Source: Escherichia coli (GTDB lineage Bacteria > Pseudomonadota > Gammaproteobacteria > Enterobacterales > Enterobacteriaceae). Taken from it: 64,000 bases of DNA. A model generated the notes under the pieces. The model worked only from the letters and a program-made list of their open reading frames with translations. It did no database searches and was not told the DNA's origin. The stretch is from the NCBI RefSeq assembly GCF_003334305.1, contig NZ_QOWS01000005.1, one strand, 5' to 3'. The stretch's first letter is position 1; each line of letters starts with the position of its first letter. Shown here piece by piece: positions 2,980 to 4,071 of the stretch. The translations under genes and the position numbers were made by a program.

Positions 2980-3267
2980 AGATTACGTACCTCCCGGTTT
3001 TGCCGGGAGTTACATGACCTGAAATTCTGTATTTCATTGCTACATTCATTCAAACCACCAGTAACAAAAAGCTGCCTTTGACGATCTATTGCTATAAATA
3101 AGTGATCTTTTTTCTTTAATTGTTTATTTATTTTAAAATGGTTAAGTTTTGCTAATCATGATGAGCTATTTTTGATAGTTCATCCTGTGGCGTCGCGCTT
3201 AAACTTATATTGTAAATGACTTAGATTTAAATGAGATAATAATTTTGTTAACAATATGAGGTGGGAG

Positions 3268-4071
3268 ATGTTTTCTACAAACTTAATACAGAGTAATTAT
3301 GGTGATTTAAATATTAAAACTGTGGCTTTTGACTCTTTTAAAGAAAGGCTTGAGTCTACCATGGCGGCACTCACTTTCTTTATATCAACGGGTCAATGTG
3401 ACTGCGATGAAATAGCAGAATCAAACTTCAATCGTATGATTGCCTATATGTCTAACATTAACTATGATGCCTCAAAGCCAGGAGCGCCAGCACTTAGTTT
3501 TGATACATATCTGCAGGACAATGTTAAATATAGAGTAATAATTAATAATCTTTATGGCAGTGAGTTTCGGATAAGAGATATTAATGAGAATTTTGTTGGG
3601 ATGGATTTTACCTGTGAATTCTGACCCGAAAAAATGACGAATTTGATCAATATAAAAAATAGGTTAGTTATTCATTATTTAAGGACTATATACTATGAAA
3701 AAAATTATATACATCCTGCCGGGAGCATTTTTGCTGCGATTCAAAAAAATGAGAGTCTCCTAAAGTTTCCTTCGATAATATCAATGCTTAATATCAATCT
3801 TCTTTTTAATCCACTAAATCTTCCGGGAATGGGAAGTGGTGTGCTTGAAGATATTATGAGTATTCCAGATAGTTCACTTAGAAAACGTCTCGGGTATGAG
3901 GTTTTAAGCTTCTCGCTACAGGCACATTCATTGAGCCAGGAATGTATTGATAAGTTGGACATTTTTTTCGCTGGCGATCTGTTTAAATATGAGTCAGTAT
4001 GCATCGCCGCGATGGAACATTTAAAAAGTAAGGCAACGGCCCCTATACAAAACGGGCCGTTGCCAGCATAA
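3268..4071 (+). pseudogene. ydjO: ydjO-like ORF interrupted by an in-frame TGA at 3622-3624 (possibly readthrough-dependent)
   Basis: Track ORFs 3256..3624 and 3634..4071 are in the same frame, separated only by TGA plus 3 codons (P-E-K); combined length from MFSTNL is 267 codons, matching the recalled size of K-12 YdjO; AT-rich. Confidence 0.6.

Follow-up and report, generated by a model that had tools for sequence, protein, structure and literature searches.

ydjO is interrupted by an in-frame TGA in the 64,000-nucleotide stretch of Escherichia coli DNA analyzed here (hereafter the window), and we are confident that the stop marks a nonsense allele, fixed and inherited vertically, by which the gene has become a unitary pseudogene. 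Intact ydjO is an AT-rich orphan gene whose 267-aa protein is under purifying selection. In one haplotype family, which encodes Arg119 as CGA, a single C-to-T transition produced TGA, so that ribosomes starting at ATG 3268 would make 118 residues and stop there. In our reading the 148 codons that follow are no longer protected by selection; in most related genomes they have gained further frameshifts, and the window copy, bearing the stop only, represents an early-stage member of this decaying lineage. We infer that the truncated 118-aa product would be non-functional, and that any decoding of the UGA as Trp, at a fraction of one percent, and any restart at ATG 3634 would be incidental noise rather than a maintained mechanism.

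The locus is identified as E. coli ydjO by its neighbors. katE (272-2533, minus strand), cedA (2716-2979, plus strand), ydjO and tcyP/ydjN (4075-5466, minus strand) follow one another in the window in the order and with the spacing found in K-12 BW25113. Two open reading frames, 3256..3624 (122 aa) and 3634..4071 (145 aa), share one frame on the plus strand and are joined by TGA at 3622-3624, the sense codons CCC GAA AAA and an ATG at 3634-3636; the base directly 3' of the TGA, 3625, is C. A preliminary description, made from the sequence alone, had reported this layout of two same-frame ORFs, TGA-C, three sense codons and ATG 3634, and both sequence and translation agree with it. The ydjO pseudogene allele itself occupies 3268..4071 on the plus strand, an 804-nt frame of 267 codon positions, interrupted at codon 119 by its only internal stop and collinear, without indels, with the gene for the 267-aa K-12 protein. 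The 267-codon size that the preliminary description had given for K-12 ydjO is correct: the intact gene of BW25113 is 804 nt long and shows no indels relative to the window.

The start codon chosen there, the ATG at 3268 that opens MFSTNL, is likewise backed by Shine-Dalgarno pairing. The Shine-Dalgarno sequence GAGGTGGGAG at 3258..3267 (plus strand) serves ATG 3268 and forms a duplex of -10.1 kcal/mol with the 16S 3' end, a pairing strength within the top 1.1% among AUGs of the window. ATG 3256, which opens the mechanically called ORF, has no such pairing (+1.0), and it is likely that ATG 3268 is the real start and ATG 3256 is not. As expected of a ydjO orthologue or allele, the gene has cedA on one side and tcyP (ydjN), with which it converges, on the other, and is collinear with K-12 ydjO over its full length (95.3% identity over 901 nt, without indels; 40 differences in the 804-nt coding sequence). 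Where a functional ydjO would have an uninterrupted 267-codon frame, the window has TGA at codon 119, and its copy is therefore filed as a pseudogene allele rather than as a functional gene.

Eighteen alleles, sampled evenly over the identity range of 4,300 matching genomes, were aligned. Comparing positions 3622-3624 with ydjO of K-12 and other strains was the check that the preliminary description had proposed, and it traces the stop to its source. Codon 119 is CGC (Arg) in K-12 and K-12-type alleles, CGA (Arg) in the intact alleles that share the window's flanking haplotype (L008 and L014-L016), and TGA in the window, L001 and L003-L007. Arg119 is invariant in 10 aligned rows, namely nine intact alleles and the window entered with R at the stop. 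Given that intact alleles of the same haplotype carry CGA, the premature TGA (3622..3624, plus strand) derives from CGA by one C-to-T transition at 3622; the stop thus lies one base change from the sense codon kept by intact relatives, as it should in a pseudogene of nonsense origin.

The stop is held within a divergent mosaic patch covering codons 97-151 (3556..3720, plus strand). Divergence between the window and K-12 reaches 15.8% within the patch against 2.2% outside it, and only 4 of 165 patch positions separate the window from L008, an intact type-2 allele. K-12-type patches read ...IRIRGINKDFIGMDVTSVF-R(CGC), while the 'type 2' haplotype of the window reads ...FRIRDINENFVGMDFTCEF- followed by CGA or TGA. 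By these comparisons, codons 97-151 fall into two old, deeply diverged haplotypes. The patch haplotypes are shuffled among otherwise similar alleles, L008 being one example, which suggests old recombination within ydjO.

Of 5,426 complete E. coli genomes, 932 (17%, about one in six) contain the exact 61-mer centered on the TGA stop, and 182 contain the identical 61-mer with CGA in place of TGA; these haplotype counts are lower bounds set by exact matching, and the complete-genome collection is clonally biased towards STEC and clinical lineages. Carriers of the TGA include E. coli W, its derivative KO11FL, ETEC B7A and many STEC genomes. At this frequency the stop is inherited by clade rather than belonging to one read or assembly, as is expected of a nonsense pseudogene. 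One option offered by the preliminary description was a strain-specific nonsense allele. It was right about the nonsense mutation, one transition away from CGA, but not about strain specificity, the allele being lineage-wide.

Another option that it offered, a sequencing error, is excluded by the recurrence of the exact stop context in all these genomes. We accordingly assign a negligible probability to the reading that the TGA is a sequencing or assembly error in the window or else a selenocysteine codon. A stop created by one base in an otherwise open frame is what a base-calling error classically looks like, and UGA can encode selenocysteine, but the 932 complete genomes with an identical 61-mer are independent of one another, and an Rfam search 3' of the UGA gave no match and no SECIS. 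With the residue at the homologous position being Arg and not Cys, a selenocysteine UGA was rejected.

The TGA allele of ydjO is already known and is annotated as a pseudogene in databases. RefSeq/PGAP labels it 'ydjO, protein YdjO', pseudo, with 'internal stop', in CFSAN061769, NCCP 13983 and E. coli W. The two pieces are also annotated apart from each other, the exact 118-aa N-terminal fragment as a separate hypothetical protein on 727 contigs and the exact 145-aa C-terminal fragment as a separate hypothetical protein on at least 1000 contigs. The preliminary description had itself held that the same TGA in reference alleles with two separately annotated genes would refute its reading; such records exist, among them WFL_09305 of E. 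coli W, an example of the 145-aa fragment.

Decay has proceeded downstream of the stop in relatives of the window. An A7 homopolymer at 3736..3742 (plus strand) is a slippage hotspot, at which related alleles have A8 (+1) or A9 (+2) and the window has A7. Extra lesions were found in four of seven sampled TGA-bearing sequences, of which the window and L001 are identical: L003 and L005 carry +A in the A7 run, L006 carries +AA, and L007 combines +A in this run with the loss of one A from the A-run that ends at 3654. The exact 92-mer with A8 occurs in 603 genomes. One ydjO match with the TGA and A8 haplotype sits on a record labeled as a plasmid, which may be a mislabeled or misassembled chromosomal segment.

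Joint haplotypes were counted with 192- or 193-nt queries across the stop and the A-run, using E-value cut-offs that pass exact matches only; the rows listed were all 100% identical, confirming that the cut-offs worked. Identity bands, tried for the same purpose, failed to separate the haplotypes and were dropped. TGA with A at 3666 and A7, the window's type, is found in 172 genomes, TGA with 3666A and A8 in 174, TGA with 3666G and A8 in 159, and TGA with 3666G and A7 in 8. A second disabling lesion (A8, a +1 frameshift) is therefore present in 333 of the 513 TGA alleles resolved (65%), where resolved means exactly matched and each of the other 419 of the 932 TGA genomes has some difference within the 192 nt. 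There is tight linkage between A8 and the SNP at 3666 (odds ratio 19.6, Fisher p = 1e-27), which shows that A8 is inherited and not the outcome of random homopolymer miscalling. It also occurs on the CGA background, in O121 RM8352 (L018), where the gene is annotated as 'frameshifted'; as far as these alleles indicate, the order of TGA and A8 may differ between lineages, or slippage may recur.

Secondary lesions downstream of the stop in relatives, here A8 in most resolved alleles and also A9 and the single-A deletion, are what a nonsense pseudogene is expected to accumulate. Most of the resolved TGA alleles have lost the open downstream frame, and the population data thus give no sign that selection keeps it. 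In the window copy the TGA is the sole lesion, and 180 genomes are in this TGA and A7 state. Within such a TGA-only sub-lineage the two halves could conceivably keep some residual role.

The nucleotide after the stop bears on termination. Reporter work by Poole, Brown and Tate in 1995 reportedly ranked UGA-C as the weakest termination signal. On this ground the preliminary description had raised readthrough as a mechanism by which full-length protein could still be made. In its functional form, near-cognate tRNA-Trp would decode the UGA-C, and a regulated or conditional fraction of YdjO (R119W) would be under selection. UGA is indeed the leakiest and most error-prone stop of E. coli, premature TGA reporters in K-12 showing average readthrough of ~0.5% at 37 C but ~7% at 18 C, with Trp as the usual insertion (PMC11126739), and trace full-length protein from UGA leakage, especially in the cold, is biochemically likely (PMC11126739). 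At +4 the window has C, and the window copy and 179 other genomes retain an open downstream frame.

Against these points, an E. coli reporter library found that G rather than C at +4 raises readthrough, and that among the five upstream bases G-rich sequence favors and T-rich sequence lowers it (PMC11126739); the five bases upstream of the window TGA are AATTC, and the effect in E. coli of a C at +4, as at the window TGA, is inconsistent between studies. Release factor background matters as well. K-12 has a weak RF2 (Thr246), and with the efficient RF2 Ala246 the validated UGA readthrough product of nudL is undetectable (PMC5373646). The TGA allele occurs in non-K-12 backgrounds only, and its carriers should have RF2 Ala246 and normal UGA termination; for the window strain we infer this from its non-K-12 background.

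Nor does the site have the marks of a recoded stop. Recoding stops are conserved in homologs, and this one is derived, confined to part of one haplotype family, with Arg (CGA or CGC) in intact relatives. The downstream frame would be open and under purifying selection, and 65% of the TGA alleles that were resolved are frameshifted there. One would also expect stimulation by the 3' context or by structure, and we found no stimulatory RNA structure 3' of the stop, the fold of 3600-3720 giving z = -0.18 against shuffles, with no Rfam match. Finally, Arg119 is invariant in intact alleles and its substitution by Trp is perhaps not neutral. With 333 of 513 alleles frameshifted downstream, no 3' structure and RF2 Ala246 expected, functional leaky readthrough is very improbable, and the stop is better read as a plain nonsense mutation.

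Restart after nonsense codons is known from lacI and T4 rIIB. The corresponding codon here is the ATG at 3634..3636 (plus strand), which is Met123 of the intact protein and is separated from the stop by 9 nt; restart there is possible but lacks support. If termination-reinitiation operated, ydjO would be a split gene whose 118-aa N-terminal and 145-aa C-terminal pieces work separately or together. The very short distance from stop to start is as such systems have it, coupling in E. coli being considered possible at spacings of -8 to +10 nt (PMC10666635). The leader before ATG 3634 is A-rich and weakly structured, and both ORFs are predicted by gene callers. However, the downstream ribosome-binding signal and conserved ORF that reinitiation calls for are lacking. 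We found no Shine-Dalgarno sequence for ATG 3634, whose pairing of only -2.1 kcal/mol sits at the median of random AUGs, and Shine-Dalgarno-driven independent initiation at this codon was rejected for that reason. The ATG is present in all alleles, intact ones included, always as Met123, and so is no adaptation to restart. In most related TGA genomes a frameshift disrupts the downstream ORF, and weak repeat-unit similarity across residues 72-169 is a faint sign that codon 119 falls within a fold unit and not between domains. The restart that the preliminary description had suggested is left unsupported by the missing Shine-Dalgarno sequence and the frameshifted downstream ORF (333 of 513), and we regard a split gene working by reinitiation as highly unlikely.

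The loss of ydjO is the loss of a real gene. dN/dS among intact alleles is 0.12-0.35 (about 0.2) in all pairs but two near-identical ones, and these low values indicate that ydjO is a real coding gene and that the stop is therefore a loss and not an annotation artifact. Comparison of alleles indicates that ydjO has been disabled repeatedly by independent routes. O157 AR-0428 (L013) has a frameshift by single-T deletion near window position 3962, and of the 39 rows that cover the full length in the spread sample, 3 measure 900 nt, which fits the O157 single-T deletion, AR-0428 being the one row that was read. CX12 (L010) has a stop at Q261, and O104:H4 isolates carry an IS insertion in ydjO (PMC3486847). 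HH45 (L019, NZ_CP116411.1 2222239-2227277) lacks ydjO entirely, with a cedA-tcyP gap of 222 bp. The neighboring katE of HH45 is annotated as an incomplete pseudogene. Across the collection, ydjO is without any match in 1,126 of 5,426 genomes (about 20-21%).

Such a record raises the question of adaptive loss, in which ydjO inactivation would be favored in some lineages and the TGA would be one of several convergent knock-outs and not a product of neutral decay. At least six independent routes can be told apart (TGA, A8/A9, the O157 single-T deletion, the Q261 stop, the IS insertion and whole-gene deletion), the A8/A9 frameshift also occurs without the TGA in O121, and the TGA allele has reached a high frequency at 17% of genomes. 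Homopolymer slippage and CGA-to-TGA transitions are, however, intrinsically frequent; frequency in a collection clonally biased towards STEC and clinical lineages is no proof of selection; and purifying selection on intact alleles (dN/dS about 0.2) implies that the gene is useful in some settings. On balance adaptive loss is unlikely, and inheritance of an ordinary nonsense allele is the reading that we retain. More speculative is a pair of ideas. The TGA-only sub-lineage (172+8 genomes, including E. coli W and the window) might hold a conditional switch, in which cold or starvation readthrough of several percent restores some full-length YdjO(R119W), or the many independent ydjO knock-outs might be selected in particular niches; we consider these a long shot. 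Conditional readthrough, if true, would be a small natural example of environment-dependent pseudogene rescue, but the population data argue against it.

YdjO had no match in Pfam or NCBIfam, and a scan of 1.84 billion representative proteins returned YdjO fragments only, except for P0059 and P0081. P0059 (L021, a Logan SRR33321306 contig, gene 622-1521; 26% identity, E = 1e-34) is an artifact, A/G-swapped E. coli DNA: compared with E. coli, its DNA shows 74 A-to-G and 55 G-to-A changes and only 12 purine matches. Swaps of this type create fake divergent proteins in the protein collection, and this one is the sole full-length 'distant homolog' of YdjO. P0081 (L022, 3001-22437) is a protein of 6,478 aa with a Por_Secre_tail (T9SS) match and dozens of ~88-aa repeats. 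Its per-repeat identity of 24% to YdjO residues 72-169 is too weak for it to be accepted as a homolog, and its HMMER E-value of 2e-9 is probably inflated by repetition. The scan, with no genuine homolog among its matches, agrees with the reported restriction of YdjO (267 aa) to E. coli/Shigella (PMC11057252). An AlphaFold model built from the shallow allele alignment was discarded (mean pLDDT 44).

ydjO forms a sharp AT-rich islet, with 30-39% GC against about 46-59% in the flanking genes. The cedA-ydjO spacer (window 3001-3267) has about 30% GC and is listed among the 'promoter islands' of K-12 (PMC3661553); a simple promoter scan of this spacer gave only one weak sigma-70-like site, at 3216-3243. 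At the other end of the gene, an 11-bp perfect inverted repeat at 4032-4064 (arms 4032-4042 and 4054-4064) lies within the last 13 ydjO codons. UUACUUUUU follows the repeat on the minus strand, where its fold reaches -25.1 kcal/mol (z = -4.3), and the tcyP stop at 4075-4077 is only 3 nt from that of ydjO. The repeat probably serves the convergent tcyP as its intrinsic terminator, in which case the C-terminus of YdjO would be encoded by its neighbor's terminator.

For annotation, the split ORFs 3256-3624 and 3634-4071 should be merged and labeled as a ydjO pseudogene; many GenBank records still show two hypothetical genes. Beyond annotation the TGA has little importance, this being an ordinary pseudogene. 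ydjO has been proposed as a universal marker gene of E. coli/Shigella (PMC11057252). Its use as a conserved marker protein calls for caution, given that the gene is absent from ~21% of genomes, carries the nonsense mutation in 17%, and is frameshifted in O157, O121 and other lineages; DNA-based qPCR on ydjO may still amplify despite the lesions.

Set beside known systems, the window allele shares some features with each. With nudL and pheL (Baggett et al., 2017) and the TGA library (PMC11126739) it shares a UGA stop, at which near-cognate decoding by Trp would give a low-level full-length product; those cases were measured in K-12 with RF2 Thr246, whereas the ydjO TGA carriers are non-K-12 and their downstream frame is not conserved. 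As in termination-reinitiation (lacI, T4 rIIB; PMC10666635), an AUG follows 9 nt past the stop on the same mRNA, but unlike those systems the ydjO pieces have neither a Shine-Dalgarno sequence nor a conserved downstream ORF. K-12 ydjO has the same locus between cedA and tcyP, the same 804-nt length, frame, start and Shine-Dalgarno sequence, and differs in having CGC (Arg) instead of TGA at codon 119 and a haplotype 15.8% divergent over codons 97-151. The closest counterpart is the PGAP pseudogene ydjO of E. coli W, B7A, CFSAN061769 and many B1-type and STEC genomes, in which the stop and its context are identical to those of the window. Many sister genomes of the window allele, unlike the window, carry an extra A8 or A9 frameshift; E. 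coli W ydjO is one base off the window's ydjO, and CFSAN061769 is 100% identical to the window's 901-nt query.
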